From: a virus
Lineage: Duplodnaviria; Caudoviricetes
Reading direction: 5' to 3' (one strand)
IMG/VR virus record: IMGVR_UViG_3300028585_000536
Span: 1 to 38,635 of that record
Length of the DNA: 38,635 bases
Shown here piece by piece: positions 1,645 through 36,041 of this stretch. Every line of letters begins with the position of its first letter. Positions within the stretch are counted from its first letter, which is position 1. Made by a program: the position numbers and the translations under genes. The notes under the pieces were generated by a model that saw nothing but the letters and a program-made list of their open reading frames with translations, did not search any database and was not told the origin of the DNA.

Positions 1645-1679
1645 ACGTCCCCCGGTTTCAAGTTGGAGTCGAGAAAACT
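1645..1679 (+). promoter_or_regulatory. Phage promoter motif copy (GTCCCCC at 1647, AAAACT at 1674, leaderless ATG at 1687)
   Basis: Same box-to-hexamer (+27) and box-to-start (+40) spacing as the other copies. Confidence 0.55.
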
Positions 1680-1686
1680 CAGCCGC

Positions 1687-2067
1687 ATGACCGACACCAT
1701 CAGCCTGTTCATCCCGAAGCCCGACGAGTGGATCAACGCGAACCAAAAGCTTCACTGGGCGGTGAAGAACAGCCGGGTCCAGACGTGGCGTGACACAGCC
1801 TGCTACCTGGCCCGGCAGGCGAAGCTGCCACAGTTGGCCCTTCCGGCGTCGGTGAACGCGTACATCATCAAAGACAGGGGCAGTCGCTATGACCCGAACA
1901 ACCTGGCCGACACCACGAAGGCCTGCATCGACGGGCTGGTCGACGCGGGGGTGCTCCCCGATGACAGCTGGCAAGAGCTGATCGGACCCGACCACCGGCA
2001 CGGCGGCAAAGGCCGACCGGGGATTATCTTCGAGTTCCGCCACCTCAACGGCTCGGTATTAACCTGA
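1687..2067 (+). CDS. RusA-like Holliday junction resolvase
   Basis: NANQKLHW...RYDPNNLADTTKACIDGLVDAGVLPDDS matches the RusA D-x-x-N...K...D...G...DD pattern. Start set at ATG 1687 rather than 1474. Confidence 0.85.
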   Translation: MTDTISLFIPKPDEWINANQKLHWAVKNSRVQTWRDTACYLARQAKLPQLALPASVNAYIIKDRGSRYDPNNLADTTKACIDGLVDAGVLPDDSWQELIGPDHRHGGKGRPGIIFEFRHLNGSVLT

Positions 2068-2079
2068 CCCCGTATGGCA

Positions 2080-2110
2080 TTGATTTACCCCCGCGATCCG
2101 ATATAGTTAG
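2080..2110 (+). promoter_or_regulatory. Putative sigma70/SigA-type promoter (TTGATT-16-TATAGT)
   Basis: AT-rich intergenic patch directly upstream of the coupled small-gene operon starting at 2145. Confidence 0.5.
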
Positions 2111-2144
2111 TGCTGTCAGTAACACCAGCAAGACAGGACCAACT

Positions 2145-2288
2145 ATGCCCGGAAAGACCACCCCGTCCGTGGTCGAGGTCGACCCAGACAGGAACGGCCA
2201 CGACGACCCAGGCTCCTCGCCCGAAGAGCACATCGCCATCCTCGACCGTGAAGTCAAAGCCTTCTACGCCATGCGGAGGAAGGGATGA
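2145..2288 (+). CDS. Small hypothetical protein (47 aa, MPGKTTPSVVEVDPD...AMRRKG), not in the ORF track
   Basis: AGGA upstream of the ATG; stop overlaps the next ATG (ATGA at 2285). Confidence 0.6.
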   Translation: MPGKTTPSVVEVDPDRNGHDDPGSSPEEHIAILDREVKAFYAMRRKG

Positions 2289-2566
2289 GTCTTCTCATCA
2301 TCAGGTGGCCCATCCTCAATGACCATCAGACTCTCGCCAGCCTCAAGGCTGAAGCGCGTGAGGACCTTGGCGTCCATTTCGAAGCGCACGGGCTACGGCT
2401 CCAAGCCGAACCCTCATGGCGGGTACTCCACGGTCGCACCGCCTACCTCGAAGCCCAGGCGCCAGTGACCGAGAAGTACCGACTCACCGGCCTCCCCTCG
2501 TTCAACACCCTGGACCAGTACGCGGACTGGCACCAATCAGCCTCCACCCTCGCGGCGGCAGCATGA
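2285..2566 (+). CDS. Hypothetical phage protein (93 aa)
   Basis: GGAGG RBS; ATGA coupling at both ends. Confidence 0.7.
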   Translation: MSLLIIRWPILNDHQTLASLKAEAREDLGVHFEAHGLRLQAEPSWRVLHGRTAYLEAQAPVTEKYRLTGLPSFNTLDQYADWHQSASTLAAAA

Positions 2567-2922
2567 GCACCGACCCCAAGGTGGACCGGATCGTGTTGCG
2601 CGTCAGCATCTGGGTACTCATCGGCCTAGCGCTCGTCACCGCCGCGGCACTCACCTACGCCCACAACGTCCAACAGACCGCCCACGCAACCCCCACGGTC
2701 GAAGACCCTCGCCTCGCAGCGATCGACACCTCAGACCGCACCCACTCGCTCTACCAAGAGCTCGTCGAGATCTCCGCAGACAGCATCACGGCCGCCGGCG
2801 ACTGGAGCACCACCACCCTCACCGACAACGCGCAACGCGCAACCGAACTCGACACCGAACTGGCACAAGCATTCGACGACTACGACACCCACGCCGCGAA
2901 CTGCCGAGATGACAACCGATGA
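2563..2922 (+). CDS. Hypothetical membrane-anchored protein (MSTDPKVDRIVLRVSIWVLIGLALV...)
   Basis: Start at the ATGA overlap at 2563; N-terminal TM helix. Confidence 0.7.
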   Translation: MSTDPKVDRIVLRVSIWVLIGLALVTAAALTYAHNVQQTAHATPTVEDPRLAAIDTSDRTHSLYQELVEISADSITAAGDWSTTTLTDNAQRATELDTELAQAFDDYDTHAANCRDDNR

Positions 2923-3308
2923 CGCACTACGAGCGGACGAACCCTAAAGCGAGGAAGCCCCATCGCTGCGGTTCCTGTCTCCGGACCATCCAGCCTGGGG
3001 AGACCTACCTGCGCGGGGTCGGGATGGAAGGTGGCTCCGCGTGGACCTGGAAAGAATGCGGCCACTGCGAACGCCTCTCAGAGTTCGTGGTCAGGCTCCA
3101 TGGCCTCGACGAGTACGGCGGCGAAGACCTACACGACTGGGACCCCGACGGACTGGCAGAGCTCCGGGTCAAGGTTCATTTCCGGAAGCGGTGGACACGG
3201 CAGGACGGCACGCTCTTCCCGCTGCCCGGGCAGGTCACGGGGAGACAAGACCTCGGTCACGGGTTCAGCATCACCCGTGTTGTCGGCATCCTTCCCGGGG
3301 CCACCTGA
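2919..3308 (+). CDS. Zn-ribbon phage protein
   Basis: KARKPHRCGSC...IQPGETY...WKECGHC: two CxxC pairs; coupled start. Confidence 0.75.
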   Translation: MTHYERTNPKARKPHRCGSCLRTIQPGETYLRGVGMEGGSAWTWKECGHCERLSEFVVRLHGLDEYGGEDLHDWDPDGLAELRVKVHFRKRWTRQDGTLFPLPGQVTGRQDLGHGFSITRVVGILPGAT

Positions 3309-3571
3309 TGGACACCCGATACCAACGTGTCGAGCTGCCGCGCGGTGGCTCCTGGCCCCGCCCATCACTCGCCACCGACACCACCCCAGGGTTGTTCCAC
3401 AAACTCACACAAGGACCACCAGAAGCACTCACCCAAGGTGAGCTTCTCTTCGCCGGATCCATCATCCGAGCCTATGAATACCTCATCTCCGAACTCACCC
3501 CAGAAGCCGCAGCCGAGGTCAACCACCAGATGACACAAGCACTCCGAAAGGAACAAGACGACTCAAGATGA
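3308..3571 (+). CDS. Hypothetical phage protein (87 aa, MDTRYQRVELP...)
   Basis: TGATG coupling at 3306-3310. Confidence 0.65.
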   Translation: MDTRYQRVELPRGGSWPRPSLATDTTPGLFHKLTQGPPEALTQGELLFAGSIIRAYEYLISELTPEAAAEVNHQMTQALRKEQDDSR

Positions 3572-3599
3572 CCACCACCCAAGTTTCCATGAGCAGGGC

Positions 3600-4298
3600 C
3601 TATTCCACGCTAGCGTCGTCGGAACCGGACATTATGGCGACGTACCTGGACCTGAGGCTGTTTTCAACCTCCGAAACCCGCTCCAAGAATGCTGACTCGC
3701 CAAGATGAGGGAAGTCCACCAGGGCAATCTCGACGTCGTCGAACATCTTGTTCTTCACTTCGTCCACCTGCGGTTTGCGAGGGTGATCTTCGAGGATGCC
3801 CCATTCATTCGGTCGCTTCGGCCTCGCCAGACTGGCTGGATCATTCTTGATCTGATCGACGACGCGCGTGAGCGCGTCGCGAACCTCTGTTCGCCGGTCG
3901 GACCACATAACCAGTTTTGTTACGGCGGCGTGGATCGACCCCAACATCGCCTCGTGCGTATCCCTCCAATCCATCCTTGCAAAACCGGATGGCGCCGTTG
4001 GCCCGAACTGCGAACGGTAGTCACGCAAGCGATTGTGCAATTCAAGACTTGCCTCCGCCTGTTCCTTAAGGAACAGCCGTTTCGCAGCTGCGTCATTGGA
4101 TGCCTCCTGGCGTCTGAGCGCAGCGTCGTTGGATTGCACCAATCTCTCGAGTGCATCCGCGCTATCTCGTTTGCGCACATAGAAGGACACGATGGCCGTG
4201 AGTGCGCCACCCACGAGTGCCCCCAACAATCCAGAGCCAGCATTGGAGCTTATGACGTTGACCGACCATTCCCCGAAAACTTGCATCCACTCTGGCAT
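3600..4298 (-). CDS. Hypothetical protein with N-terminal TM anchor, cargo gene
   Basis: 232 aa; GLLGALVGGALTAIVSFYV followed by a basic stretch and a helical domain. TACGAT box 6 nt before the ATG. Confidence 0.75.
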   Translation of the reverse strand: MPEWMQVFGEWSVNVISSNAGSGLLGALVGGALTAIVSFYVRKRDSADALERLVQSNDAALRRQEASNDAAAKRLFLKEQAEASLELHNRLRDYRSQFGPTAPSGFARMDWRDTHEAMLGSIHAAVTKLVMWSDRRTEVRDALTRVVDQIKNDPASLARPKRPNEWGILEDHPRKPQVDEVKNKMFDDVEIALVDFPHLGESAFLERVSEVENSLRSRYVAIMSGSDDASVE

Positions 4299-4366
4299 GA
4301 ACCGATCGTAAGCGCTTTAAGTGCTGAGACTGTCCACCCGATTTTTGAACCAAAGGAGCACGCATC

Positions 4367-4825
4367 ATGGGATACACCGTCTACCAAGACCCCACTCCGA
4401 ACCCCTGGGCAGGCTACGGAGTGCGCGCCCCTTGTGAAGTGACCGGCTGCGATGAGCAGATCGACCGGGGCATGGCCTGGGAATGCGAGACCGTCCACGA
4501 GTGTAAGTACCTGCTCAACGGGGTGGAGGTCGGCCCCACCGAAGAGTGGGATGAGGAGATCGAACGTGAGGAAGAAGGCTGCTACCTGTTCTTCTGCTCC
4601 GCCCACGAAGGTCACCGTCTCCACCATGACGCCCAGCCGAAGCCGGATTCCCTGGAGTGGGAAGCACGCATGCTCACCGACGAATCCTGGGAGCAGTGGC
4701 GGACAGAGAACCCGACGAAGGTAGCGGCAATGGAGCGACGCGCGGGGCTAGACGAGAGTCATCTCCGTGAACAGAGAACGAGTGTCAGTAACCCTCTGGA
4801 GGATCGACGGCGTAATCGATACTGA
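4367..4825 (+). CDS. Cys/His-rich hypothetical phage protein
   Basis: AAGGAG RBS; AGYGVRAPCEVTGCDEQIDRG...GCYLFFCSAH suggests Zn ligands. Confidence 0.75.
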   Translation: MGYTVYQDPTPNPWAGYGVRAPCEVTGCDEQIDRGMAWECETVHECKYLLNGVEVGPTEEWDEEIEREEEGCYLFFCSAHEGHRLHHDAQPKPDSLEWEARMLTDESWEQWRTENPTKVAAMERRAGLDESHLREQRTSVSNPLEDRRRNRY

Positions 4826-5299: not shown

Positions 5300-5650
5300 A
5301 TGAATCAACCACACACACTCACCCTCTACGGCCGTCAGATCGAGCTGGAACCGCTCGCCCCTGATGAAGAAGTGGTCGACGTCGTCGTTGTGGTGAAGAC
5401 TCGCCACGCTGGCAGTGACAGCTCCACCGTGGCCGTCGCCAACCGACCGGGATCCTCAGAGCCACCACGGATGAGCAGCGACCTCCGGTACCTCATGAAC
5501 CTCGGCCTCACGCAGGCGGACATCGCTGACCGGACAGGGCGCACAGAGACCGCGATCCGGCGTGAGATCGAAGACGAAGGGGCCACGCGTAAGAAGAGGT
5601 CCCCAGCTTCTAGACCAGCAGGTGACAACCCCCACTCACTCTCGAGGTAG
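5300..5650 (+). CDS. HTH-containing DNA-binding protein
   Basis: AAGGAG RBS; LMNLGLTQADIADRTGRTETAIRREI is an HTH signature. Confidence 0.7.
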   Translation: MNQPHTLTLYGRQIELEPLAPDEEVVDVVVVVKTRHAGSDSSTVAVANRPGSSEPPRMSSDLRYLMNLGLTQADIADRTGRTETAIRREIEDEGATRKKRSPASRPAGDNPHSLSR

Positions 5651-5689: not shown

Positions 5690-6640
5690 CTAAGGCCGCA
5701 GGACAGGCGGGACCTGCGTACAACTCACGACGAGACCAAGCTGCTGGAGTCGCTCAATGAGATCAGAATTCGGCGAAGGATCGACGACGAACACTTCAGC
5801 TCCCTTCGGCAAAGAAGTTAGAACCACGTCAATTTCCTCACGATCGCAAGGAGCATAGGAGAGACCAACGATGACGCAGGTGCTCCACCGCGATCCCGTC
5901 GCGTGGATCCACTGCTCTCCTGGGCTTACCCACTGAAAATTGCGGTACCGGCTACGTTCCGTGGGAACAACTACATCTGCTTGGAGACGCGGCCGCGTCC
6001 ATTCATTTCGAGAGACCCGCTCTAATGACATGTCGTTGTCGCGGACCAAGTTTCGAAGCGGATAGGAGTGCCTAAGCCCCTCGATCTGACCTCTAGTGGG
6101 GCGATAGTCAAGTGAACCGTGGGGTTTCCACAGGAAGGCGCGCTGCTGCCTCGCAGACATAAGCCACTGGTCTGGAAAGTCAGGTATCCCCGGTGTGACC
6201 CATGGGACACCTGCTCGGGCGACCAGGCGTTCAACCACCAGGTCGTAGTTGAGCGAAACGATGCCTCCTAGTCGATCCGAGTTGTCGTCGAAGAACGGCC
6301 ACCATCGCCATTCATCGAGCGGGAGGCTGTCCACCACGCGTTGGTACATGGAGAACGCCATCACGAGGTAGTGCCGCAACTCCACGACCGGAAAAGCGTC
6401 CAGGGAGCCGTCCGACTCTACGAGTTTGGTCATGCGCTCAAAGTCAGACCCGTCGAAACCATCAAGAGCTTGGAATGCTCGAGGGAAAAGATCCCGAAGC
6501 GGCTTGCGGTACTCAGGGTGCACGAGTCCCCACGCCAAGGGGCTGCGCGTGTCCCACTCGTCTAGCTCTAGTTCAAAGTGGGCACGCAGATCCATCGAGA
6601 ACCCGTTGCCAACTAGCATCAGAAGATCGCACCCTGCCAT
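5690..6640 (-). CDS. SIR2-like / AbiH-like protein, candidate anti-phage NADase
   Basis: Motifs LVGNGFS, SLNYDLVVE, KPHGSL, VVVPT, IVGLSYAPCD and VFVVDP follow the order seen in SIR2_2/AbiH proteins. Confidence 0.8.
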   Translation of the reverse strand: MAGCDLLMLVGNGFSMDLRAHFELELDEWDTRSPLAWGLVHPEYRKPLRDLFPRAFQALDGFDGSDFERMTKLVESDGSLDAFPVVELRHYLVMAFSMYQRVVDSLPLDEWRWWPFFDDNSDRLGGIVSLNYDLVVERLVARAGVPWVTPGIPDFPDQWLMSARQQRAFLWKPHGSLDYRPTRGQIEGLRHSYPLRNLVRDNDMSLERVSRNEWTRPRLQADVVVPTERSRYRNFQWVSPGEQWIHATGSRWSTCVIVGLSYAPCDREEIDVVLTSLPKGAEVFVVDPSPNSDLIERLQQLGLVVSCTQVPPVLRP

Positions 6641-6850
6641 GGCCTAAACCATATCTTCTGCAGTTGCAGTCCCTATCGCTACCCTCGTTGTGGCCGAGAC
6701 TGTCGGAGTGAGACAAAGCATTAGGAACGCGGACTCGGCTGGCCCACCCGAACGGGAGACACGCGGACACTGAGGAGCGCCGTAATGGCTCCTATTTGGT
6801 ACCGTATGGGATGTCAGGCCACTCCACCCTTCCCCCCTTTGTGAGGCCCT

Positions 6851-7549
6851 GTGTCATCCCGCCAGCTCTGCCCAGCCTGCTCCCAACGAGAAGCCCGACT
6901 CATCGACCCCCACTGCCTCATCTGTGACGGCACCGGAATCATGTGGCTCGGCGACCCGGCTCTCACCCTCTACCCCGCCGCCGTCGTCGCCGAGGCCGTA
7001 GACATCACCCTCGAAGCCGCCGCCCGCCTCGGAGACACCGGCGGCACACTCTCCGATGACCGGCTCAACCACGTCCGCGCCGCACTCCTGGCCCTGAGGG
7101 ACGCAGGGGTCCTCGACCCGGAGTGCACCACCCTCACCCACGCCACGGCCCCCATGACCCGTGCTAAATGCTCCGCCGTCGAGCTTGCAGAAGGGGTGCT
7201 TCAAGAACCGATCCTGCCACTGGACAGCGTCCTCGCCCGGGCAGCGCCTTACGAGTACTCGGAGGACGATCGTCCGGGACAGCGCGGGCTACCTGTCCTT
7301 TCCCAGAACGGGCACCCGTCGCACCTCGCTAGGCTCTGTGATCCCAGGGATCCATACATGGACACGCCTGCGGATGTGCGCCGACGACGTAGGAAGAACC
7401 GGCAAGGCACCGTGCTCGCGGAAGCCGTGAAGCATATGGCTGCGCTCCCCTACCGTGGCCGGAACCGTCAAACCGTGGGCCAGCTGGAGCTGATCTCACC
7501 TGACACGCTCAGCGCATGCACGCAGCAGCAAGAGAAAGCAGCCGCCTAG
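6851..7549 (+). CDS. Zn-finger hypothetical protein upstream of the packaging genes (possible late-gene regulator)
   Basis: N-terminal CPAC...CLICDGTG and a basic C-terminal patch, RRRRRKNR. GAGG before the GTG. Function inferred from position only. Confidence 0.65.
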   Translation: MSSRQLCPACSQREARLIDPHCLICDGTGIMWLGDPALTLYPAAVVAEAVDITLEAAARLGDTGGTLSDDRLNHVRAALLALRDAGVLDPECTTLTHATAPMTRAKCSAVELAEGVLQEPILPLDSVLARAAPYEYSEDDRPGQRGLPVLSQNGHPSHLARLCDPRDPYMDTPADVRRRRRKNRQGTVLAEAVKHMAALPYRGRNRQTVGQLELISPDTLSACTQQQEKAAA

Positions 7550-7567: not shown

Positions 7568-7840
7568 TCAGGCTTTACCCGTGCGCTGCAGGCGGTTAGC
7601 AATCCAAGGATCAATGGTGGATCGGCGCCAGGCCACTGACGTGTTCCGGGCGTGCTTCACCGGAGACCGGAACGGTTCGGGCAACGGGGCGCGACCCTCG
7701 GATGGCGGCAGATCAAAGCGGCCGGGCTTGCCCTCACGGCGTCGCTTATCGGTCCTGGCTTTTTCCACCTGCAGGTACCGGACCGACACGTCGATCCGTT
7801 GAGCCACTTCAGGCAGGGTCACCATCTCTGATCCACTCAT
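7568..7840 (-). CDS. AlpA/excisionase-like winged-HTH protein
   Basis: MVTLPEVAQRIDVSVRYL...LPEP...SVAWRRSTIDPWI resembles AlpA/Xis. Start is probably ATG 7840 rather than 7945. Confidence 0.7.
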   Translation of the reverse strand: MSGSEMVTLPEVAQRIDVSVRYLQVEKARTDKRRREGKPGRFDLPPSEGRAPLPEPFRSPVKHARNTSVAWRRSTIDPWIANRLQRTGKA

Positions 7841-7870: not shown

Positions 7871-7905
7871 CCGTCCCCCAGGAACGTCCACCGTCGGCGG
7901 ATCAT
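7871..7905 (+). promoter_or_regulatory. Phage late-promoter motif copy before terS
   Basis: CCGTCCCCCA (G at 7873) and GATCAT at 7900; leader with GGAGG RBS follows. Confidence 0.7.
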
Positions 7906-7944
7906 CACCCACACGAGACACCGAGACGACACCACGGAGGAACA

Positions 7945-8430
7945 ATGGGGCAGGCCCGCAGGAGAGCCACCAAGGCCGAAATGCTGCAGAAGAAGAAACG
8001 GGCGATGGACCTGCTCGCCCTCGGCCACACCTACCAAGAGATCGCCGACGACATCGGTTACGCCAACCGCTCCGCAGCCCGTGGACTCATCGAAACCGAA
8101 CTCAAAGCCGAAGTCAACGAATCCGCGCGCGGCGTCCGCATGCTCCGCGCCCAGGAACTCCTCAGCCTCCAGCAGATCGAAGCCAAGCTCCTACCCGTCA
8201 TCCTCAATTCGAACCTCTCCGAGATGCCCGGGAAGATGCTCTACCCCTACCTGGAGACCATCGACCGGATCGTCAAGATCAAAGAGCGCCGCGCCAAAAT
8301 GCTCGGCCTCGATGAATCAGAAGAAGTCCAGCTCACCGGAGGCGGGCAGATCCAGGTCATCATCGACGGCCAAGTCGTGGAGAAGAAACGCAGCGAGGTC
8401 GAAGTTGAAGTGCCTTCGAACGACAGGTGA
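7945..8430 (+). CDS. terS: Terminase small subunit (HTH)
   Basis: LGHTYQEIADDIGY HTH and ERRAKMLGLD motif; immediately upstream of TerL. Confidence 0.85.
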   Translation: MGQARRRATKAEMLQKKKRAMDLLALGHTYQEIADDIGYANRSAARGLIETELKAEVNESARGVRMLRAQELLSLQQIEAKLLPVILNSNLSEMPGKMLYPYLETIDRIVKIKERRAKMLGLDESEEVQLTGGGQIQVIIDGQVVEKKRSEVEVEVPSNDR

Positions 8431-8433: not shown

Positions 8434-11058
8434 GTGAATCAAGTCCACTACAAATACACGCCATCACCGAAACAGGCCGAAGCCCACAGCGTCATGGTCA
8501 ACGAGCTCCTCTACGGCGGCGCAGCTGGGGGCGGGAAGCTGCTCGCCTACTCGACCCCTGTGCTCACGCCCACTGGGTGGACCACTCACGGTGCGCTCAA
8601 GCCAGGTGATCAGGTCTACGGTCACGACGGGCGACCCGTCACTGTGCTCGCTTCCTACACCCCGCCCACCGCCTGTCACTACCTGATCACGTTCTCCAGT
8701 GGGGAGACGATCAGGGCAGGCCGGGAGCACCTGTGGACCGTTCAGACGGACGCCGATCGTGCGAGCTTCAGCCGCGCTGACCCTGAGTGGAAGGCGCGCC
8801 GTCGTGCCGCCCGGCCCTCGCGTGCCAAGCAGAACCCCGAGCGGGGGCATCACCAGCAGGCTTCTGTGACCGCGAGAAATCAGCTCACGGCGGCTGCTGC
8901 ACGTGAAGGACAGGTCCGGGACTCGGTCTGGGAGTACACGCGGACCCTGGAGACGCATGAACTTGCTGACCTCTTCGCCTCGGAGAAGCGCAAGATCTCC
9001 ATCCCCGCCCCCGGACCGATAGAAACAATCGGCGCATGGGAGGGGGCTACCCCTCCGTGGGTTCTGGGCATGTGGCTGGGCGATGGGCACACCAAGAGCG
9101 GAGTCATCTGCCAGGGAGACGATGACGCAACCGAACTGATCCGTGTCATGAGCGCCCACGGGTTCGAACTCCACCGGGTATCCGCTGGAAAGAACTACAC
9201 GTTCAAGGATAGCCGCGGAGTCCTCATGCACCGTCACATCACGGCCGACCTGGGACACCACTCCGACCGGCGCAAGCACATCCCCTCATGGGCATACTCG
9301 GCACCGTACGAAGACCGACTCGCCCTGCTCCAGGGGATCATTGACTCCGACGGCCACGTCAACGACCGAGGTCAGGTCGAGCTATCGCTATCGGATGAGC
9401 CTCTCGCGTTCGAGGTGTCGCGCCTTCTTGCCACCCTCGGTCTCCGTTGCACACCGCAGCGGGGTTATGCCGGCTACGCGGATGTCCAGTGCAAGGACCG
9501 GTGGAGACTCAAGTTCACTACCCACCTGCCGGTCGCGCGGTACCCCCGGAAACGTGCGAAGCTCCCACTCGGATCGGAGAAGTCCGCGCGCACAAGCTCG
9601 GTCTATATCACCGGCATAGAGCAGGTGGCAGCCGATGAGCCAGCCAACTGCATCACCGTTGACGATGCCCTGCACATCTACCTTGCGGGACGGACGCTCA
9701 TCCCTACCCACAACTCGCGCATGGCCCGCGCCGAGGCAGTCATGACCGCCCTCATGGTGCCCGGTGCGAAGATCGTGATCTTCCGGCGCGAGTTCCCACA
9801 GTTGGAAGCATCAGTGGTCGAGGAGATGAAGAAGGAGATCCCCAAGGAGATCGCCACCTACAACAATTCGAAGCACACCTGGAACTTCAAGAACGGGTCC
9901 ATCATCTTCCTCCGGCATATGCAGCTGGAGAAGCACAAGGAGAGTCACCAGGGCGCTGAGTATGTGCTGGTCGTCTTCGAGGAAGCCACCCACTTCACTG
10001 AAGGCCAATACCGGTACCTGCGGAGCCGTGTGCGCGCAGCAGATGACGTGAAGGACCGACTCAAAGAACTCGGACTGATCCCGCGGATGATCCTCACGGC
10101 CAACCCTGGAGGTATCGGCCACCACTGGGTGAAGGGCCGTTTCGTGGACCCGGCACCGCCAGGGAAGATCTTCCGAGAAGCACCATCGGAGAAGCGGCCC
10201 AACCCCGGTACCCGCTGCTTCATCCCCGCCACCGTCTGGGACAACCCGCACGTCAACGACGAATACATTGACGAGCTCCGAGACCTCCCCGATGACCAGC
10301 GCAAAGCCATGCTCGAAGGCGACTGGAACGTCTTCCAGGGAGTCCGCTTCCCCTCCTGGTCGGAACCTCACCACGTCATCAGTCCAGACCAGCTGCCGAT
10401 GTCGAAGTTCATGAGCAGCGGGCAGAAGGTCATCGGGGTCGACTACGGGATCGCGTCCCCCTTCGCCGCTGTCTGGATGGTGAAGCTCCACGACGATCTC
10501 GTGTTGGTCTACCGGGAACTGCACATGGCCGAGTTGACCGCCACCGAGCAGGCCGAGATGATCCGGGACCTCAGTGCTGAGGAGGAACGCCAGATGGGGA
10601 AGAAGATCCCCATCGTCATGGACCCGTCCATGTGGCACCGCGGCGACGCCGGTGTCGCGAAGAGCCTCAACGCTGACATGCCACCAGTAGGGTCACCAGC
10701 CCACCACTACATGCGAGTCCTAGACCGGGTGCCCCACAAAGCGGTCAACACCCGTATCAACGGTGCGGCCCTCCTGGACCACCACCTGAAGGTCCGACCT
10801 GACGGGTTGTCCCGATTCATGGTCTACGAGAACTGCCGGGACTTCATCCGGACCTTCCCATCCTTGCCCCGTTCCAAGAAGAACCCCAACGACGTCGACA
10901 CCGAGGCAGACGACCACATCTACGATGCCGCCAGGTACGCCCTGATGTTCTTGGCGGGCAAGAATGTGCCCTCTGCGGATCAACGGCGCGCAGCTGCTGA
11001 CAGTCGCCCACCGGTGGTCCAGCCGCTTACTGCGGGTATTGGTTCAGCGAACTTCTGA
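8434..11058 (+). CDS. terL: Terminase large subunit containing an intein (874-aa precursor, about 482 aa spliced)
   Basis: Walker A YGGAAGGGK/S split by the intein; Walker B VVFEEATHF; TANPGG; nuclease motifs GVDYG and DDHIYDAARY. Confidence 0.95.
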   Translation: MNQVHYKYTPSPKQAEAHSVMVNELLYGGAAGGGKLLAYSTPVLTPTGWTTHGALKPGDQVYGHDGRPVTVLASYTPPTACHYLITFSSGETIRAGREHLWTVQTDADRASFSRADPEWKARRRAARPSRAKQNPERGHHQQASVTARNQLTAAAAREGQVRDSVWEYTRTLETHELADLFASEKRKISIPAPGPIETIGAWEGATPPWVLGMWLGDGHTKSGVICQGDDDATELIRVMSAHGFELHRVSAGKNYTFKDSRGVLMHRHITADLGHHSDRRKHIPSWAYSAPYEDRLALLQGIIDSDGHVNDRGQVELSLSDEPLAFEVSRLLATLGLRCTPQRGYAGYADVQCKDRWRLKFTTHLPVARYPRKRAKLPLGSEKSARTSSVYITGIEQVAADEPANCITVDDALHIYLAGRTLIPTHNSRMARAEAVMTALMVPGAKIVIFRREFPQLEASVVEEMKKEIPKEIATYNNSKHTWNFKNGSIIFLRHMQLEKHKESHQGAEYVLVVFEEATHFTEGQYRYLRSRVRAADDVKDRLKELGLIPRMILTANPGGIGHHWVKGRFVDPAPPGKIFREAPSEKRPNPGTRCFIPATVWDNPHVNDEYIDELRDLPDDQRKAMLEGDWNVFQGVRFPSWSEPHHVISPDQLPMSKFMSSGQKVIGVDYGIASPFAAVWMVKLHDDLVLVYRELHMAELTATEQAEMIRDLSAEEERQMGKKIPIVMDPSMWHRGDAGVAKSLNADMPPVGSPAHHYMRVLDRVPHKAVNTRINGAALLDHHLKVRPDGLSRFMVYENCRDFIRTFPSLPRSKKNPNDVDTEADDHIYDAARYALMFLAGKNVPSADQRRAAADSRPPVVQPLTAGIGSANF
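8539..9714 (+). mobile_element. Class 3-type intein with LAGLIDADG homing endonuclease (392 aa)
   Basis: Block A LLAYSTPVLTPTGW; block B REHLW; block F ANCITV; block G IPTHN/S; endonuclease motifs LGMWLGDG and LQGIIDSDG. Confidence 0.92.
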
Positions 11059-11063: not shown

Positions 11064-11098
11064 CCGTCCCCCAAACTGGGGAGCCCGGAACTCATGGT
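11064..11098 (+). promoter_or_regulatory. Phage late-promoter motif copy before the portal gene (leaderless)
   Basis: CCGTCCCCCA (G 11066), CATGGT at 11093, ATG at 11105. Confidence 0.75.
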
Positions 11099-13608: not shown

Positions 13609-13643
13609 CCGTCCCCCACGCCAACGGCACTGAGGCGCAGGGT
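13609..13643 (+). promoter_or_regulatory. Phage late-promoter motif copy before the protease gene (leaderless)
   Basis: CCGTCCCCCA (G 13611), CAGGGT at 13638, ATG at 13651. Confidence 0.75.
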
Positions 13644-13650: not shown

Positions 13651-15138
13651 ATGACCTACGTAAATGTTGAAGATGTCGCCATCATCAAGACCGGCACATG
13701 GGACGCCTCCACGGGAGAAGCGACCATCACCACCGACATGGTCGCCGACATTCACGCCGCCTGGGACTCCGGGCTTCTGAACCTCCCGGTCATCAAGATC
13801 GGCCACATCAACCCGTCCGTGGATAACCCCGACTGGGGAGACGGGGCACCCGCCTACGGGCAGGTCGACAACCTCCGTATCGAAGACGACGGGAACACGC
13901 TGCGCGGTGATTACATCAAGGTCCCTGAGGACCTGGCCAAGAAACTCGCGTCCGCGTACCCACAGCGCTCGGCAGAGATCGACTTCGGTGTGGAGCTGCG
14001 TGACCAGGACGGCGAGACCGTGCAGGAGTTTCCCGCCGTGCTGACGGCAGTCGCTCTGCTCGGAGCCTCGGCCCCCGCGGTGATGGGCCTCGACGACGTT
14101 CACACCGAATTCTCAGCCAAACGAAAGGGACTCTCCGTGCATCTCTCCGGAAAACGAACCGCGCTGTCTATGGATCTCGCCCTCCCCGGGGGCAAGACCT
14201 CCCGCGAACTCGATGAGGCGCTCCGAAGCCTCGTCTACGGGCTCCGCGATCGCAGCGAGGACGAGTGGTACTTCCTCATGGACTGGACCGATGAGTTTGC
14301 CTACTACCAGCACGAGGACATCGAACCCAAGACCTACCAGCGTCCCTACGTGGTAGCCGAGGACGGCACCCTCGACTGGGCCGGCGAGGCCGTTGAGGTC
14401 GTCGCTAAGCACAGCTTCGAACCAGTCTCTGCCCCGTCCAGCACTCCCCCTGAAACCGTCCCACAACCGGAAGCTCAGCTCTCCCATTCTGACGGTACGG
14501 ACACCACCTCGCCGGTGGTGACAACCGCTACCGAAGGAGCAAAACCGATGCTGAGCGATGAGGCCCTGAAGGGCCTACGTGAACAGCTCGAACTCCCGGA
14601 GGACGCTACTTCTGAGCAGATTCAAGAAGCCGTCAGCCGGGCGTTCGAAGCTAATGACACCACCGGCGATCAGAACGCTGGTGGAACCAACAACGAGGCC
14701 GGCGAGCAGGGCGCAGCAGGCTCCGCCCCAGCGAACCTGGACGAGGTGGCGTCCATCGCCGCAGCCAAGGGTGGACCGGAACTGGTGCAGCTTTCCCGCA
14801 ACCAGCTCAACGCTGTGCTGACCCGCAACTCCGATCTTGAAGCCCGCCTCTCACGCATTGAGGCGAAGCAGACCGCAGAGTTCGTGGACGCACAGATCAC
14901 CGAGGGCAAGCGCCGGGGCAAGATCCACCCCAAGGATGAGGGCGCTTGGCGCGCAAGCTTCGCAGCCAACGCCAAGGACGCCGCAGGCCTCCTGGCGCAG
15001 ATCACCCCCACCATCCCGGTCTCCGAGATCGGGTCCACCCATGCAGCGTTCGCAGCCGCCGACACCGATGTGGACGACCAGTCCCGCGGAGAGCGTCGCC
15101 GCCTGATGAACATCCCATCTGAAAGCGAGGCCAAGTGA
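13651..15138 (+). CDS. Mu I-like capsid maturation protease with C-terminal scaffold
   Basis: PVIKIGH, PAYGQV, YPQRSAE and LTAVALLGASAPAVMGL are typical of Mu-type proteases; helical, acidic C-terminus. Confidence 0.85.
   Translation: MTYVNVEDVAIIKTGTWDASTGEATITTDMVADIHAAWDSGLLNLPVIKIGHINPSVDNPDWGDGAPAYGQVDNLRIEDDGNTLRGDYIKVPEDLAKKLASAYPQRSAEIDFGVELRDQDGETVQEFPAVLTAVALLGASAPAVMGLDDVHTEFSAKRKGLSVHLSGKRTALSMDLALPGGKTSRELDEALRSLVYGLRDRSEDEWYFLMDWTDEFAYYQHEDIEPKTYQRPYVVAEDGTLDWAGEAVEVVAKHSFEPVSAPSSTPPETVPQPEAQLSHSDGTDTTSPVVTTATEGAKPMLSDEALKGLREQLELPEDATSEQIQEAVSRAFEANDTTGDQNAGGTNNEAGEQGAAGSAPANLDEVASIAAAKGGPELVQLSRNQLNAVLTRNSDLEARLSRIEAKQTAEFVDAQITEGKRRGKIHPKDEGAWRASFAANAKDAAGLLAQITPTIPVSEIGSTHAAFAAADTDVDDQSRGERRRLMNIPSESEAK
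14456..14490 (+). promoter_or_regulatory. Internal copy of the late-promoter motif inside the protease gene
   Basis: CCGTCCCACA (G 14458) and CATTCT at 14485, upstream of GAAGGAG and in-frame ATG 14548. Confidence 0.7.
14548..15138 (+). CDS. Nested in-frame scaffolding protein (Mu Z / lambda Nu3-like)
   Basis: Strong RBS AAGGAG, in-frame ATG (MLSDEALKGLREQLELPEDAT...) and its own promoter motif. Confidence 0.7.
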   Translation: MLSDEALKGLREQLELPEDATSEQIQEAVSRAFEANDTTGDQNAGGTNNEAGEQGAAGSAPANLDEVASIAAAKGGPELVQLSRNQLNAVLTRNSDLEARLSRIEAKQTAEFVDAQITEGKRRGKIHPKDEGAWRASFAANAKDAAGLLAQITPTIPVSEIGSTHAAFAAADTDVDDQSRGERRRLMNIPSESEAK

Positions 15139-18647: not shown

Positions 18648-18682
18648 CCGTCCCACAAGCCTAGCCCGGTGGGCCACACGCT
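18648..18682 (+). promoter_or_regulatory. Phage late-promoter motif copy before the sheath operon (leaderless)
   Basis: CCGTCCCACA (G 18650), CACGCT at 18677, ATG at 18689. Confidence 0.75.
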
Positions 18683-21157: not shown

Positions 21158-21199
21158 AAAAGACGTGTGGGGCGGTTCAGGATCTGGTGCGGTCCTGGG

Positions 21200-21234
21200 C
21201 CGTCCCACACTCACGTCCGGCGTCGACACATCCT
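21200..21234 (+). promoter_or_regulatory. Phage late-promoter motif copy before the tail assembly chaperone
   Basis: CCGTCCCACA (G 21202) and CATCCT at 21229. Confidence 0.72.
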
Positions 21235-21300: not shown

Positions 21301-21876
21301 ATGTCAGAACAGCCCACCTACGGCACCCTCGACGAGACCGAAAAGAACATCCCGAGCGAGCTCCCGGAGACAGGTGAGAACGCACCTAAGCCGCTGAGCA
21401 TCCTCGAGCAGATGCGCGCCGACATCGAGGAAGAACTCGAAGATGAACTCGACGAGGTCAAGAACTGGGATGTCCCGGCACGTCCCCGGTACAAGCTGAA
21501 GTTCAACACCTACCTCGACGGCGAGCGGTTCGTTGAGCTCCGCGAAGCTGCCACCACCGCCACCCAGAACCGCAAAGCTCGCCGCTCGGGTGAGCCAGGA
21601 AAGTTCGACGGGCGCAAGTTCGCGCTGAGCCTGATCCGGGAACTCACTGCGGGCATCATCTTCGACGGCAACGCCGTTCACCTCGGATCGGGTCAGCCCC
21701 TCACCCTCACTGATCGGGAGTTCCTCGACATCGTCAAGGGCACCAAGTACGGGGAGAACGTCCACACCATCAACCATGCCATCGAGAAGTTCCTTACCCC
21801 CGGCTACCTGATCGCGATGGGTGACTCACTCGTCGAGGCCTGTGGCTACACCGTGGAGGCGAACCCAAATTCTTGA
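21301..21876 (+). CDS. Tail assembly chaperone (gpG-like)
   Basis: Between tube and tape measure genes; ends at a slippery site. Start is ATG 21301 or GTG 21289. Confidence 0.8.
   Translation: MSEQPTYGTLDETEKNIPSELPETGENAPKPLSILEQMRADIEEELEDELDEVKNWDVPARPRYKLKFNTYLDGERFVELREAATTATQNRKARRSGEPGKFDGRKFALSLIRELTAGIIFDGNAVHLGSGQPLTLTDREFLDIVKGTKYGENVHTINHAIEKFLTPGYLIAMGDSLVEACGYTVEANPNS
21864..21870 (+). other. Programmed -1 ribosomal frameshift site C CCA AAT
   Basis: X XXY YYZ heptamer in the correct phase; the -1 frame runs into ORF 21873-22082. Confidence 0.8.
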
Positions 21877-22082
21877 CCGACCTGGTTGCCCGTCTCCGCT
21901 CCGACCCCCGGATGCGGGAAGCGGTCAACGTCTCACAGATCCTCCGATTGGACCCGATCGCGGTCCTTGAGGAAACGGACACGTGGAGACGGGCAGCCAG
22001 GCTCGCAGCCATCGAAATGGTCGCTCAAGACCGTGAAGAAGCACGACACAAACAGGAGCAAGCCGCCAAGAACCGGCGGTGA
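21873..22082 (+). CDS. Frameshift extension of the tail assembly chaperone (gpGT-like C-terminus)
   Basis: -1 frame relative to the chaperone, no convincing RBS of its own, ends just before the tape measure gene. Confidence 0.75.
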   Translation: MTDLVARLRSDPRMREAVNVSQILRLDPIAVLEETDTWRRAARLAAIEMVAQDREEARHKQEQAAKNRR

Positions 22083-22106
22083 TCCATAGGGAGGGGAGGT
22101 CGGCAG

Positions 22107-26746: not shown

Positions 26747-26760
26747 GGAAACTAGTCTCG

Positions 26761-26794
26761 GTCCCCCTATCCGTGCGCTGGACGGGGATAGCTT
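26761..26794 (+). promoter_or_regulatory. Phage late-promoter motif variant before the baseplate hub gene (leaderless)
   Basis: GTCCCCCT at 26761, TAGCTT at 26789 (+28), ATG at 26801 (+40). Confidence 0.6.
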
Positions 26795-28378: not shown

Positions 28379-28413
28379 CCGTCCCCCAAGCCGAACGGTG
28401 ACGGCGGCACCCT
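28379..28413 (+). promoter_or_regulatory. Phage late-promoter motif copy before the tail fibre gene (leaderless)
   Basis: CCGTCCCCCA (G 28381), CACCCT at 28408, ATG at 28420. Confidence 0.75.
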
Positions 28414-30801: not shown

Positions 30802-30879
30802 GCTCCCTCCCCCACGAGCGTCGCCGACGGCCGCTTACTGGGCGCGTAACCACCAACACGCTCAGCCCAGGAGGCAGCC

Positions 30880-32440: not shown

Positions 32441-32445
32441 CTCGA

Positions 32446-32492
32446 AACACACTGCCGCCCCATCCTCCGTTGAGGTGGGGCGGCAGTGTGTT
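32446..32492. terminator. Intrinsic terminator hairpin between the convergent holin and fic genes
   Basis: Perfect 17-bp inverted repeat AACACACTGCCGCCCCA / TGGGGCGGCAGTGTGTT. Confidence 0.85.
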
Positions 32493-32496
32493 GTGT

Positions 32497-33702
32497 CTAG
32501 AGCTCCGAGCGTGAGACGAAGACTTGCAAGACGTCTGGGGCATAGAATCGACGCTTATAGGTCTTGCGCCCCCGTTCGCGGAGGATGTCTAACTCCACTA
32601 ATTGCCTTACAACGCGATTTGCCGCGTTGTAAGAAACACCCAACTCTCGCTGCGCTTGTGGCACTGTGAACGATGGGCTGCCAACGGCGAGGTCTACCAG
32701 CGTGTGAGCTGTGTCAGACCGCAAATTCGATTCGCGGATTCTCTCTTTGAGGTTCTCTTGGACCGCCATGAGAGCCAACATCTGTCGCTTCGTTGACTCC
32801 GCTGCTTCCCGAATGCCTTTCGCGAAGAAGGCTATATAGGAGTCCCAGTCACCCGTTGCGCTGACGTCAAACAGGGCGTCGTAGTAGTCCGTGCGGCGCG
32901 CCTCGAACCACGGCGAAACCGTAAGCGTTGGTTCATCCAGCAAGCCTGTCTTCAATAGGTGTAAGACAATCAGGAAGCGTCCCAGCCGCCCGTTCCCATC
33001 ACGGAATGGGTGCAGAGCTTCAAACTGGTAGTGGGACATAGCCGCTGAGACAACCGGATCAATCTTGTCCGAGTGATCCATGCGCATCCAACTGACCAAA
33101 TCACTCACGCCAGTCTTGAGTTGATCCCCAGGCGGAGCGGGGACGAAACGCGAGGCGTAAACCGGAATGGTTTCTGCATCAACACCGGAGCGACGACCAA
33201 TGACGACCGGCCGGTCGCGTAGTCGGCCCGACTCAGGTGCCAAAGAAGTTCCGTGCATGAGCGCCCCCTGGAGGTCTTCCAGAAGCGTCACGGTCACGGG
33301 GGCACCCTTATGCACCCATGCGAAGCCCTGATTCGCCATATCGACATAATTGAAGATCTCAATTAGTTCTGGAGAGAATGTATCTTCCTCACCAGCCGTT
33401 AGCACCTCCGACAGAGGCGCATACGTGCCCTCCAGAGCAGAAGTGCTTTGCGCTTCTCTTCGAAGCGTTGGCATGCGGAGGAGCCCCGGATTTGGTAACT
33501 GACGAGCAATGCTATCTAAGGATGCGAGCGCAGCTCGGGCGTTGCCGATGACGAGGTTCGTTTGCTGACTCAGCAGTGGCGAGTCCTCTGGTAGTGGAGC
33601 AGGAAGGAATGCCTTGTGATGCCAGTTCCCGATTTCAGGGTCGAAACCCGAGATGTCTACAAGTGATCCCATGGCTGCGTTGGTGAAGAGTTCGGTTTGC
33701 AC
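32497..33702 (-). CDS. Fic family AMPylase (N-terminal inhibitory helix, C-terminal HTH)
   Basis: Canonical HPFRDGNGRLGR; STSALEGT inhibitory motif; C-terminal FTVPQAQRELGVSYNAANRVV HTH. Confidence 0.93.
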   Translation of the reverse strand: MQTELFTNAAMGSLVDISGFDPEIGNWHHKAFLPAPLPEDSPLLSQQTNLVIGNARAALASLDSIARQLPNPGLLRMPTLRREAQSTSALEGTYAPLSEVLTAGEEDTFSPELIEIFNYVDMANQGFAWVHKGAPVTVTLLEDLQGALMHGTSLAPESGRLRDRPVVIGRRSGVDAETIPVYASRFVPAPPGDQLKTGVSDLVSWMRMDHSDKIDPVVSAAMSHYQFEALHPFRDGNGRLGRFLIVLHLLKTGLLDEPTLTVSPWFEARRTDYYDALFDVSATGDWDSYIAFFAKGIREAAESTKRQMLALMAVQENLKERIRESNLRSDTAHTLVDLAVGSPSFTVPQAQRELGVSYNAANRVVRQLVELDILRERGRKTYKRRFYAPDVLQVFVSRSEL

Positions 33703-33995
33703 AATCTCAGATTAGCACCGTAAAGATGTATTTGGCGCTCAAAATCTCACTCTTCTACGTAATATGGAGAATCTTCTGCTCAATGCACGCACAAGGTTGT
33801 GAGTCGACCCGGTCGGTCCGCCTCACCTACCCCGCTGCGACCCAAGCGGACTGTTACCTAAGTCTGCCTTCGCCCACCAGGCAGGCGCCCACTCCTTGGT
33901 CCAGCAGGTCGCCTTCGCATCTACGGTCCATAAATCTGAGAGCTCCACACGCACGTAGTTGTCCAAGAACATACCGTCTCAGAACTCCGACGCAT

Positions 33996-34256
33996 TCAGT
34001 TCGTGGGAGTCGCCCCTGCCTCGGAACGCAGTGGGCGCGGATGAGGCCAGCTTTTGCCGCGGATCGTGACAGGGATGTCGCGGGGCGAAGCTAACTCTCT
34101 CTGGTCTATCGCGGTGACCGCCCTAAGGAGGACTCTTGGAGCGCTGCGTTTGAGGGATGGTCCCTGCACTTCGCGGCGTCCGTCTTCCGGCTCCTCGACT
34201 AACAGAAAGTCGTAGTGTCTGCCGTTAATTTTCCAGCGCATCCGTGCTTTGCTCAC
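33996..34256 (-). CDS. Small hypothetical protein, paralog of 34643-34846
   Basis: GTG start at 34256 lies 7 nt after TATCGT and aligns with the paralog start; RWKIN...RGKSWPHP. Confidence 0.7.
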   Translation of the reverse strand: MSKARMRWKINGRHYDFLLVEEPEDGRREVQGPSLKRSAPRVLLRAVTAIDQRELASPRDIPVTIRGKSWPHPRPLRSEAGATPTN

Positions 34257-34342
34257 TAATTGAACGATACACACTCATTACTTGCGTGGCACTTCTTGTA
34301 TTCCAGGCAGGGAGGGGTTTCCGGTGGACGTGGAGCTCGGCG

Positions 34343-34591
34343 CTACTTTGGGGGAAGTTCGACGTCAACGTGGCGGACTCGATCGGCCGACGCGGGAAAT
34401 GTCTCTTCCGCGGCGTTCTGTAGCCAGCCCCGATCGGATCGGTACGCGATGCCTGTGAGAACTACGGTTCCTCGCCGATCAGGGACGTAGGCGGCGTCGG
34501 CGTGCCCTCGGAGTGGGAGCTCCGTATAGTCCTCGAACCCCGCGCAGTAGTAGTCAACGCCTTCAATTGTGACTTTGTCGTAGATAGTCAT
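34343..34591 (-). CDS. Small hypothetical protein (82 aa)
   Basis: GAGGAA RBS; globular-looking composition. Confidence 0.7.
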   Translation of the reverse strand: MTIYDKVTIEGVDYYCAGFEDYTELPLRGHADAAYVPDRRGTVVLTGIAYRSDRGWLQNAAEETFPASADRVRHVDVELPPK

Positions 34592-34642
34592 TGGTTCCTC
34601 TGTTCTCGCAACATGCAGTCTCCGTCCGTAAAGCCTGAAGCA

Positions 34643-34846
34643 TCACTCGGCGGGTTGAGGTGATGGCCAGGACTCTCCTCTCAAAGGAATCTCAGCGTCG
34701 TAGGGCGTGCGGGGTTCTCCGTCGACGGCTGCGATGCCTTGCAATCGAGCGACGATCTCGTTGCCTACTTCGGCCGGTGCCCGGTCTGCGGACGCAAACT
34801 CGTAGACGTGGTCGTTGATTTTCCATCTCCACTGTGCTGTCGCCAT
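34643..34846 (-). CDS. Small hypothetical protein, paralog of 33996-34256
   Basis: TACTGT 6 nt before the ATG; RWKIN...RGESWPSP. Confidence 0.72.
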   Translation of the reverse strand: MATAQWRWKINDHVYEFASADRAPAEVGNEIVARLQGIAAVDGEPRTPYDAEIPLRGESWPSPQPAE

Positions 34847-34918
34847 ACCTAGACAGTATCTATGTGATCCTCAATGCTTACTGGATCCCATGTGAACGTC
34901 GGCTCCACGGCCTTGGAT

Positions 34919-35206
34919 CTAGTACTCGTCGTCGCGTTCGGGTTTGGTTTGGAAGCGTCGTATGACCCATGATTCGGGAAACAGGGCGTCTTCAACGGCG
35001 GTGGGTCGATGGGCGGTGAACCCTGAAGGGCGTCCGTAGCGCGAGGCGGATGCATAGTAGGTGGTGACTTGCAGCTGCTCCACCAGGTCGACTGCCAGGG
35101 ATTCCAAGTATTCGCGCTGCACATCATCTGGGTCGCCGTGCTGGCGAGTGTGAGCGTCGATCATCTTTGCGGTGAAGGACTCTACTGCGGCGTTCCGATC
35201 CGGCAT
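34919..35206 (-). CDS. Small hypothetical protein (95 aa)
   Basis: CATCAT 6 nt before the ATG; co-oriented with its neighbours. Confidence 0.6.
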   Translation of the reverse strand: MPDRNAAVESFTAKMIDAHTRQHGDPDDVQREYLESLAVDLVEQLQVTTYYASASRYGRPSGFTAHRPTAVEDALFPESWVIRRFQTKPERDDEY

Positions 35207-35230
35207 GCCGTCATGATGCCACGGCTGGGT

Positions 35231-35551
35231 CTACTCGTGTTGTGGAAACGCGTGAGACGGTGACGGCGGCTTGACGTTGAGGCATTGACTTAAAGCTGCC
35301 TGCAGCATGTTCCACTGGGACTTGGGCCAGGCGGGGTCGTGCACTTCGAAGGGCGCACCGTGACTAATCGATCCATGCCAAATCTCGACAGTAGGAGTGC
35401 AGCCCCCTCGTGGCGCCCCGGTGAAGATATCCAGGCCTTGAACTCGTACCGTGTATCCGTCGACGGTTGCCTCTCTTGGGACGCCTTGGAAACTTGTGCG
35501 TTTGAGCGCACGGATTAACTCGGTCGTGAGCGAGAGGGAAAGCCGTTGCAT
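35231..35551 (-). CDS. Small hypothetical protein (106 aa)
   Basis: First ORF of the minus-strand island, downstream of an AT-rich palindromic region. Confidence 0.55.
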   Translation of the reverse strand: MQRLSLSLTTELIRALKRTSFQGVPREATVDGYTVRVQGLDIFTGAPRGGCTPTVEIWHGSISHGAPFEVHDPAWPKSQWNMLQAALSQCLNVKPPSPSHAFPQHE

Positions 35552-35593
35552 ATTAGTCTCGTGTCCTGGGTCACATCGAATGTTCCCAGAAGT

Positions 35594-35615
35594 TTATAGA
35601 GACTTTCGTCTATAA
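35594..35615. promoter_or_regulatory. Inverted repeat TTATAGA-N8-TCTATAA (operator or recombination-site-like)
   Basis: Perfect 7-bp AT-rich arms in a GC-rich context, in the divergent intergenic region. Confidence 0.45.
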
Positions 35616-35679
35616 GCCAGAGCCTTTGTCTCATTGACCGCATCGACGCACCAGAGACGCTTGCGGGCAGGACTGCACC

Positions 35680-35714
35680 CCCTCCCACTGGGCATAAGCT
35701 TCCCGGCGCATTCT
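35680..35714 (+). promoter_or_regulatory. Phage late-promoter motif variant before the wedge operon (leaderless)
   Basis: CCCTCCCACT (box position 35682), CATTCT at 35709, ATG at 35721. Confidence 0.7.
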
Positions 35715-35720
35715 CTTTGT

Positions 35721-36041
35721 ATGACAGAAGGCGTCCTCTCGTTCCCGTTCAGGCTCACCCCGCAAGGTGAAGCTGCGATCGCGCCCTACGGCAGCGACCA
35801 GGAAGTTCGTGAAGCGATTGCTGCACTGACCCTCACCTACCTCGGCGAGAGACTGCTCAGCCCGGAGTTTGGGATCACAGATCCTGCATGGAACGGGATC
35901 GACCCCAACGATGTCCAAGCAGGACTCGATAACTATGGGCCGGTCGGGGTGACGGTGACAGGTGTCGAGGAAGAACCCGTGACCGAGACCCAGACCGCCT
36001 ACGTCATTGAGTGGTCGCACGACGATGAGGAGACCCCGTGA
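35721..36041 (+). CDS. Baseplate wedge / sheath initiator, gp25 (GPW)-like
   Basis: LSFPFRL...LTLTYLGERLLSPEFGITDP is the gp25 signature; start at ATG 35721. Confidence 0.88.
   Translation: MTEGVLSFPFRLTPQGEAAIAPYGSDQEVREAIAALTLTYLGERLLSPEFGITDPAWNGIDPNDVQAGLDNYGPVGVTVTGVEEEPVTETQTAYVIEWSHDDEETP

Follow-up and report, generated by a model that had tools for sequence, protein, structure and literature searches.

A fixed-spacing C-rich box marks probable late promoters in a contractile-tailed phage and its relatives

The virus record IMGVR_UViG_3300028585_000536 raises the question of what a C-rich 10-mer, repeated at a near-invariant distance ahead of structural genes, is for, and which protein would read it. 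The window analysed here, the whole stretch of 38,635 nucleotides, is a provirus record, about 70% complete, of a contractile-tailed phage, with genes for terminase, Mu-like portal, protease-scaffold, capsid, sheath, tube, tape measure, endolysin and baseplate. Its sheath has matches, all below 60% identity, in 88 phage records, of which 72 are of Arthrobacter, 14 of Gordonia and 2 of Brevibacterium. For one window protein, the nearest named relative belongs to Nesterenkonia suensis (70%); a Micrococcaceae host is therefore likely. The original prediction held that each morphogenesis module of this phage has its own, mostly leaderless, promoter, made of the box and a -10-like hexamer. Our comparison of related phage sequences leads us to conclude that the signature very probably marks some ten late promoters.

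The ten main box, hexamer and start coordinates of the original prediction were all found as given; it numbers the box from the G/C of (G/C)TCCC, and the 10-mer begins 2 nucleotides before that base. The exact 10-mer occurs eight times on the plus strand and not on the minus strand of the window; 300 dinucleotide shuffles gave a mean of 0.87 and a maximum of 4. In its bipartite form, (G/C)TCCC(A/C)C-N21-ANNNT, the motif is found ten times on the plus strand and not on the minus strand (shuffles: mean 1.52, maximum 6), one of these matches, at 10455 inside terL, being probably due to chance. That is, both forms exceed random frequency, but the box alone with one mismatch does not (19 observed in the window, 18.8 expected), and the signal thus depends on the exact core and the spacing. 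A profile trained on relatives placed just six window sites above the top score of 50 shuffles. Because the motif had been derived from the window itself, its enrichment there is a circular test, and the signature was therefore tested in related phages.

The signature was counted as TCCC(A/C)C-N(k)-ANNNT-N6,7-ATG, at k=21 and at eight other values of k, in the window and 14 relatives, hereafter the 15 box-positive genomes. Some relatives (several of the G-numbered ones) and three controls were covered in part, over 40,000-60,000 bases (Gray, 48,001 of 88,970). The full signature occurs 74 times at k=21 and 0-1 times at each of the other spacers; when the window is set aside, 68 matches at the true spacer compare with 5 across the eight others. 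Each of the 15 genomes contributes 3-9 leaderless signatures. The same count in the three controls gave 0, 0 and 1, the single match being antisense with an open reading frame (ORF) of 15 codons. Among 12 relatives, A and T stand at +28 and +32 from the box in 71 of 118 cores, with 1-8 at any other offset, and ATG follows at +39 (33 sites) or +40 (10 sites). The near-invariant spacing of box, hexamer and start claimed for the window is thus reproduced in its relatives, at orthologous genes.

Where ATG or GTG lies at +39 or +40, a Shine-Dalgarno (SD) sequence is found in 5 of 45 cases (background 9.8%). At sites with a leader, an SD with a start within 110 nucleotides is present in 22 of 24 (background 21%). 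This split agrees with the claim that the leaderless starts have no ribosome-binding site, and because the SD is absent at the +39/+40 starts and present elsewhere, we infer that transcription starts (+1) at box+39. The predicted numbering then places T(+32) at -7, A(+28) at -11 and the box at -41..-32.

The resulting consensus is C-N-TCCC(A/C)C(A/C), 19 free bases, (C/G)ANNNT, 6-7 bases and the start. The box and the -10 element were therefore as first described, but position -39, previously specified as G or C, is in fact free (G35, A16, T12, C11), and -12 is C or G rather than C (C50, G20, A2, T2; C or G in 70 of 74). A non-T base at -12 paired with a C-rich element at the -35 position had been part of the same claim, and both features hold. 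The spacer columns carry at most 0.26 bits in the 12 relatives. In many relatives, the sequence RACAC lies at about -51..-47, one turn upstream of the box; it is absent from the window. The box itself, with the consensus CNTCCCMCM, is asymmetric and has no TTAT-N5-6-ATAA dyad.

An A at -11 and a T at -7, with +1 seven bases on, are the signature of a primary sigma factor (sigma-70 region 2). Because both are retained, host SigA polymerase aided by a phage activator is favored over an alternative sigma factor; the original prediction had offered the two side by side. On the strength of these positions, we consider it likely that the promoters are read by SigA polymerase together with a phage activator.

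Does each morphogenesis module indeed have its own promoter? Eight of the 12 sites (7873, 11066, 13611, 14458, 18650, 21202, 28381 and 35682) have orthologous sites in relatives, and the box recurs before the orthologous terS, portal, protease, connector, tail chaperone, one tail gene and baseplate wedge. No recurring box precedes the terL, capsid or sheath genes in the relatives compared. Conservation at orthologous genes, fixed spacing and the split in SD usage together bear out the modular, mostly leaderless arrangement. All sites lie on the plus strand. At 7871-7905, the box is paired with GATCAT (predicted +1 near 7912) and followed by a leader with GGAGG, ahead of the terS-like helix-turn-helix (HTH) gene (ATG 7945). 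Leaderless starts with orthologous sites in relatives are predicted for the portal (CATGGT, 11064-11098; ATG 11105, at +39), the protease-scaffold (CAGGGT, 13609-13643; ATG 13651, at +40), the connector, ahead of sheath and tube (CACGCT, 18648-18682; ATG 18689), a tail gene (CACCCT, 28379-28413; ATG 28420), and the baseplate wedge (box CCCTCCCACT with CATTCT, 35680-35714; ATG 35721). The site at 21200-21234 (CATCCT), which also has orthologues, is separated by a leader from the gene of the tail assembly chaperone (ATG 21301).

Of the sites that depart from this pattern, the one at 26759-26794 has a box with a one-base insertion, followed by TAGCTT and a leaderless tail gene (ATG 26801). X2 and X4, close relatives of the window that both come from one study, lack base 26768 and show canonical spacing at the orthologous position, which rescues this site. 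A probable box with AAAACT at 1645-1679, ahead of a leaderless RusA resolvase (ATG 1687), fits the strict pattern and is unconserved in relatives. The two copies originally described as weaker fared less well. At 30805-30839, a perfect box is combined with T at -11, and a GGAGG-bearing leader runs to ATG 30880, before the endolysin (31032). X2 and X4 have compensating spacer indels there, and in Vibaki a box precedes lysin A; we regard this site as uncertain. The copy at 6667-6701 has more than two mismatches, no gene start downstream and no counterpart in 17 related loci. It is probably a chance match and, judged by these features, probably not part of the promoter code.

One conserved site lies within a gene. 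The box with CATTCT at 14456-14490 (predicted +1 near 14497) is inside the protease gene, and a box is found at the same place in Abba, Jawnski, Vibaki, ArV1, Prairie and G022. In all seven genomes evaluated, an SD and an in-frame start lie 33-51 nucleotides past +39. The internal start coincides with the beginning of the Mu-like scaffold domain (Mu-like_Pro, matched over residues 295-462), and the predicted scaffold-only product, at 14548-15138 on the plus strand, has an ATG with a GAAGGAG SD and precedes the genes for the cement and major capsid proteins. This internal promoter would provide extra scaffold, cement and capsid protein.

The box might instead act as a repressor operator or stoperator over weak promoters, or as an RNA-level signal such as a terminator or a translation element. 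It is asymmetric and co-oriented like the stoperators described for L5 (PMC4557955), and hairpins with stems of at least 7 bp are found at 12 of 106 sites, compared with 4.2 in permutations. At the tail-chaperone site, a 20-bp hairpin follows the tube gene (21160-21210); its 3' arm is the box at 21202 and its 5' arm a near-box on the minus strand. An 80-nucleotide stretch here folds at -45.9 kcal/mol, and the hairpin may be a terminator that overlaps the promoter. However, the box precedes the predicted +1 and hence would not be part of its own transcript, its -10 partner avoids the host consensus, the sites mark late genes also in phages without an annotated repressor, and a long stem is absent at 94 of the 106 sites. 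We consider a repressor or RNA-level role very improbable. Hairpin or cruciform promoters were rejected as a general rule on the same count of 12 of 106 sites.

If the sites are activated promoters, which protein would activate them? We compared the distribution of 71 Abba genes (iterated hidden Markov models for 44 of them) and of G021 ORFs with that of the box in the 15 box-positive genomes. One family outside the terminase-to-baseplate block, that of Abba gp64, is present in 15 of 15, and it is the sole non-morphogenesis family of which this is true. Its window member, P0001 (phrog_5264), is a protein of 232 residues encoded at 6851-7549 on the plus strand, with a CxxC-x11-CxxCxGxG zinc finger, a helical body and a basic helix at residues 172-198. 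The terminase block begins shortly after this gene. A TANNNT hexamer is in range upstream of it in 16 of 18 loci (background 7.7%), in the window as the host-type TACCGT at 6800-6805 (plus strand), and a box in none of the 18. The gene thus stands behind TANNNT and never behind the box, and is therefore placed as expected of a master activator. Autoregulation of P0001 through site 6669 was rejected, given the 0 of 18 loci with a box upstream; a box at 41016 in Abba is out of register.

All 15 near-complete virus records among 22 records searched hold the pattern, with 3-10 matches (reversed-pattern control, 0-2); they were found via the P0001 family, and several are close kin of each other. 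In distant subfamilies, at 31-41% identity, the box is kept before portal and protease; one member lies in a prophage, its P0001-family protein being 99% identical to a Nakamurella silvestris protein. Ten controls with the portal, capsid or sheath in common (Ryan, Suerte, HH92, Mbo4, 32HC, Cantare, GMA6, Stiles, Opie and Gray) gave 0-4 scattered signature matches, and none of them has a P0001 homologue. In Prairie and Jinkies, both the pattern and the family are present.

These data bear on the idea that a host regulator or alternative sigma factor of the SigB, ECF (extracytoplasmic function) or WhiB type reads the promoters, so that a phage factor is unnecessary. Among phages of different hosts, the box stays constant while P0001 drifts to about 31% identity, as might be expected if a host protein were the reader. 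However, Arthrobacter phage Ryan, with the host species of Abba and the same portal family, has 0 matches, and the pattern follows phage clade, not host. A host reader is therefore very unlikely, and we return to a phage-encoded activator. A global scan of viral contigs gave an excess at the true spacing (93 versus 26), but the rows are mostly antisense coding repeats, by their look W-D-G codons of tape-measure genes, and the excess was dropped as evidence for this reason; five rows only led into homologues of genes of this clade. A Pseudomonas match from a genome scan is weak and was set aside as probably spurious.

To what kind of protein does P0001 belong? The family has four conserved cysteines, and the cysteine knuckle, CxxC..CxxCxGxG, resembles those of DnaJ and anti-TRAP (E 0.03 and 1.5). 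P0001 matched no Pfam family, and no sigma Pfam match was found at E 0.1 in P0001 and 69 relatives. Two structural models were obtained, with predicted local distance difference test scores (pLDDT) of 88-89. Foldseek and VIA-align gave no PDB match for them (best Z 3.4 and 3.2), with the C-terminal part barely covered, a result that does not imply a novel fold. The BFVD fold search matched only a member of the P0001 family, the ESM Atlas gave no usable named match, and the Mor fold was not among the matches listed in the fold searches. In one search, a few ECF sigma chains were found at Z 2.3-2.7 over residues 33-165.

Such chains might suggest that a phage factor, with P0001 as the candidate, replaces or remodels sigma, the box and (C/G)ANNNT being the -35 and -10 elements of a new holoenzyme. 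The rigid spacing and the near-exclusion of T at -12 do resemble the promoter of a sigma factor. However, the Z values are at background level, ECF chains are not among the 50 matches listed for the second model, no sigma Pfam match was found, and -11A/-7T is the primary-sigma signature. A new holoenzyme is thus quite improbable. A bolder variant is that phrog_5264 is a new-fold specificity factor that remodels or partly replaces primary sigma, rewriting the read-out of -35 and -12, with one leaderless promoter code kept unchanged in myophages of several actinobacterial families, even as the protein diverged to about 30% identity; we regard this as speculative and unlikely.

Several observations weigh against P0001 as the activator. 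P0001 has no match to an HTH or other DNA-binding family, and it is net acidic outside residues 171-200. Its distribution is shared by terL, a MuF-like gene and a minor tail gene, likewise in 15 of 15 genomes (terS in 14 of 15), so that co-occurrence perhaps only marks a clade that inherited one block. Nine of the 15 box-positive genomes were found by a search with the P0001 family, whose presence in those nine is thus by construction. The reverse search, from box to gene, yielded one complete record and four uninformative fragments. Finally, a gene may be missing from a window about 70% complete. Because it rests on the distribution of the family across genomes, the link from P0001 to the box is correlational.

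The promoters may be as described and the activator another protein. Three phage proteins, or a factor pair, come into question: the terS-like HTH protein (Abba gp1 family; 7945-8430, plus strand), a small winged-helix-type protein divergent from terS (Abba gp67 family; 7568-7840, minus strand), and a small HTH protein (Abba gp60 family; 5471-5650, plus strand), with P0001 as a packaging or assembly accessory. Upstream of the gp67-type gene lies a TATAGT hexamer. All three have the HTH character that P0001 lacks and are common among the box-positive genomes (terS-like in 14 of 15, gp67-type in 12 with one match weak, gp60-type in 11), and in ArV1 the P0001 gene overlaps terS. However, the gp60-type gene is absent from the near-complete, box-positive G021 and G022, and the gp67-type gene from G021. 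The terS-like gene is itself box-driven, in the window and in four relatives (G001, G004, G011 and G016), and its product would need priming because its own gene sits behind a box. Another activator thus seems unlikely, and the phrog_5264 protein is, from its distribution and gene position, on balance the probable late activator. Sliding-clamp genes occur in Abba (L001, 42859-44124), Jawnski (L002, 45607-46878) and ArV1 (L204, 1760-2875). The clamp is used by MuC for late transcription (PMC12867686); here it lies outside the core system, as its gene is present in just three of the 15 genomes.

Taken together, we propose with moderate confidence that about ten late promoters are fired by SigA polymerase only with a phage activator, most likely the protein encoded at 6851-7549, acting on the box. 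In this mechanism, region 2 of the host primary sigma would read -11A/-7T, and C or G at -12 and the lack of a TTGACA -35 element would keep the promoters silent without help. The activator, expressed from an ordinary TANNNT promoter, would bind the asymmetric box at -41..-32 beside sigma region 4, in class II geometry, with RACAC at -51..-47 extending its site in many relatives. It would turn on all modules together, and the separate promoters would set the stoichiometry of the modules.

How does this compare with known systems? Streptomyces phage phiC31 has many dispersed, conserved lytic promoters that need infection, with a conserved element that overlaps the start site; to our knowledge, no protein has been identified as their activator. 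We liken our promoters to these, and set them apart, by description. The late promoters of Mu have a recognisable -10 and no -35 (PMC12867686), and Mu C works with host polymerase and primary sigma from a site at -30 to -55 (PMC12867686; PMC3152322). The window phage is alike in having several predicted late promoters with a -10 but no -35, a box at -41..-32, and a Mu-like portal and protease-scaffold. Unlike Mu C, with its dyad TTAT-N5-6-ATAA, it has an asymmetric C-rich box, and unlike Mu, with four late promoters, it has about ten predicted ones, mostly leaderless. No Mor-family Pfam match was found in 49 ORFs scanned in the window, an incomplete genome, or in 70 P0001-family members.

In phage P1, too, many late operons are dispersed, and the phage-specific promoter of each needs one phage factor, Lpa (PMC8198154). 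Lpa acts at a site centred on -22 and requires host SspA (PMC3152322), whereas here the element lies at -41..-32 and the spacer around -22 is uninformative (at most 0.26 bits). P2 Ogr and P4 delta, both small zinc-binding proteins, activate several late promoters (PMC3152322). The inverted repeats bound by Ogr lie at about -55, whereas here there is just RACAC at -51..-47 in relatives and no dyad, and P0001, with four conserved cysteines in 232 residues, has no Ogr family match. The proposed system would thus work in the manner of the Mu C, P1 Lpa or P2 Ogr regulons, but departs from them in defining features of site and protein. In Firmicutes phages, the gene for RinA or Alt (TP901-1) lies just upstream of terS and is expressed before it (PMC3152322), much as the P0001 gene lies immediately upstream of the terS region. 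Unlike those phages, with a single late promoter ahead of terS, the present genomes have 3-9 leaderless signatures each, and RinA and Alt show no sequence match to P0001.

Among actinophages, start-associated sequences (SAS), extended SAS (ESAS) and intergenic repeats are dispersed, co-oriented motifs before genes of cluster K, EC, EF and EI phages, as set out in passages of PMC7302621 and PMC11373665. By those accounts, SAS lies at the ribosome-binding site and ESAS has SigA-like -35/-10 elements, whereas the present box lies 39-40 nucleotides before the start, with no SD and a base other than T at -12. The EC and EF motifs differ in sequence from the box, as do the motifs quoted for Microbacterium and cluster K phages (PMC7302621; PMC11373665; PMC4557955), and in no case is such a motif described there as a late promoter of structural genes with fixed spacing. 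In the main text of a 46-phage Arthrobacter survey, the terms 'promoter' and 'motif' are absent (PMC5513430). The motif had been put forward as one not recognised from described phages. No description of it was found in the literature searched, mostly by title and the start of the abstract, so that an earlier mention is possible, yet it is common to cultured Arthrobacter phages.

Promoters of actinobacterial phages are poorly defined, a point made for mycobacteriophages in PMC11373665. The late activators that PMC3152322 lists are those of enterobacterial and Firmicutes phages. The present analysis supplies a precise consensus for the probable late promoters, together with predicted start sites and one candidate activator without a structural match, and these are directly testable because the features are found in the cultured phages Abba, Jawnski, Vibaki, ArV1 and Prairie, which grow on a harmless laboratory host. 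If the proposal is correct, start-codon calls of leaderless structural genes would be corrected, an unannotated scaffold product would be revealed, and the promoters might be developed into a means of tight, orthogonal induction in Micrococcaceae.

Some relatives carry boxes also in the non-structural arm (L003, 40666 and 41118; G006, G008, G009 and G015, about 35,000-37,400; L004, 33722), one of which is conserved within a recombination-region gene of AR-type phages. The regulon is thus wider than the virion genes. In the window, as in Abba and ArV1, the baseplate wedge/J module (35721-37851) comes after the lysis genes and cargo and has its own box, and separate promoters may be what allows cargo to be inserted between modules. 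Inserted reverse-strand genes are found at 904-1614, 3600-4298, 5690-6640 and 32497-33702 (all minus strand), with SIR2-like and Fic-domain proteins among their products; they are possibly defence cargo. The terminase large subunit (8434-11058) contains a LAGLIDADG intein-like insertion at about 8537-9721, with none in the close relatives X2, X4 and X6. Finally, the tail chaperone gene (21301-22089) overlaps the ORF behind it, a homologue of Abba gp17 present in all 15 genomes, and the two likely form a frameshifted chaperone pair.

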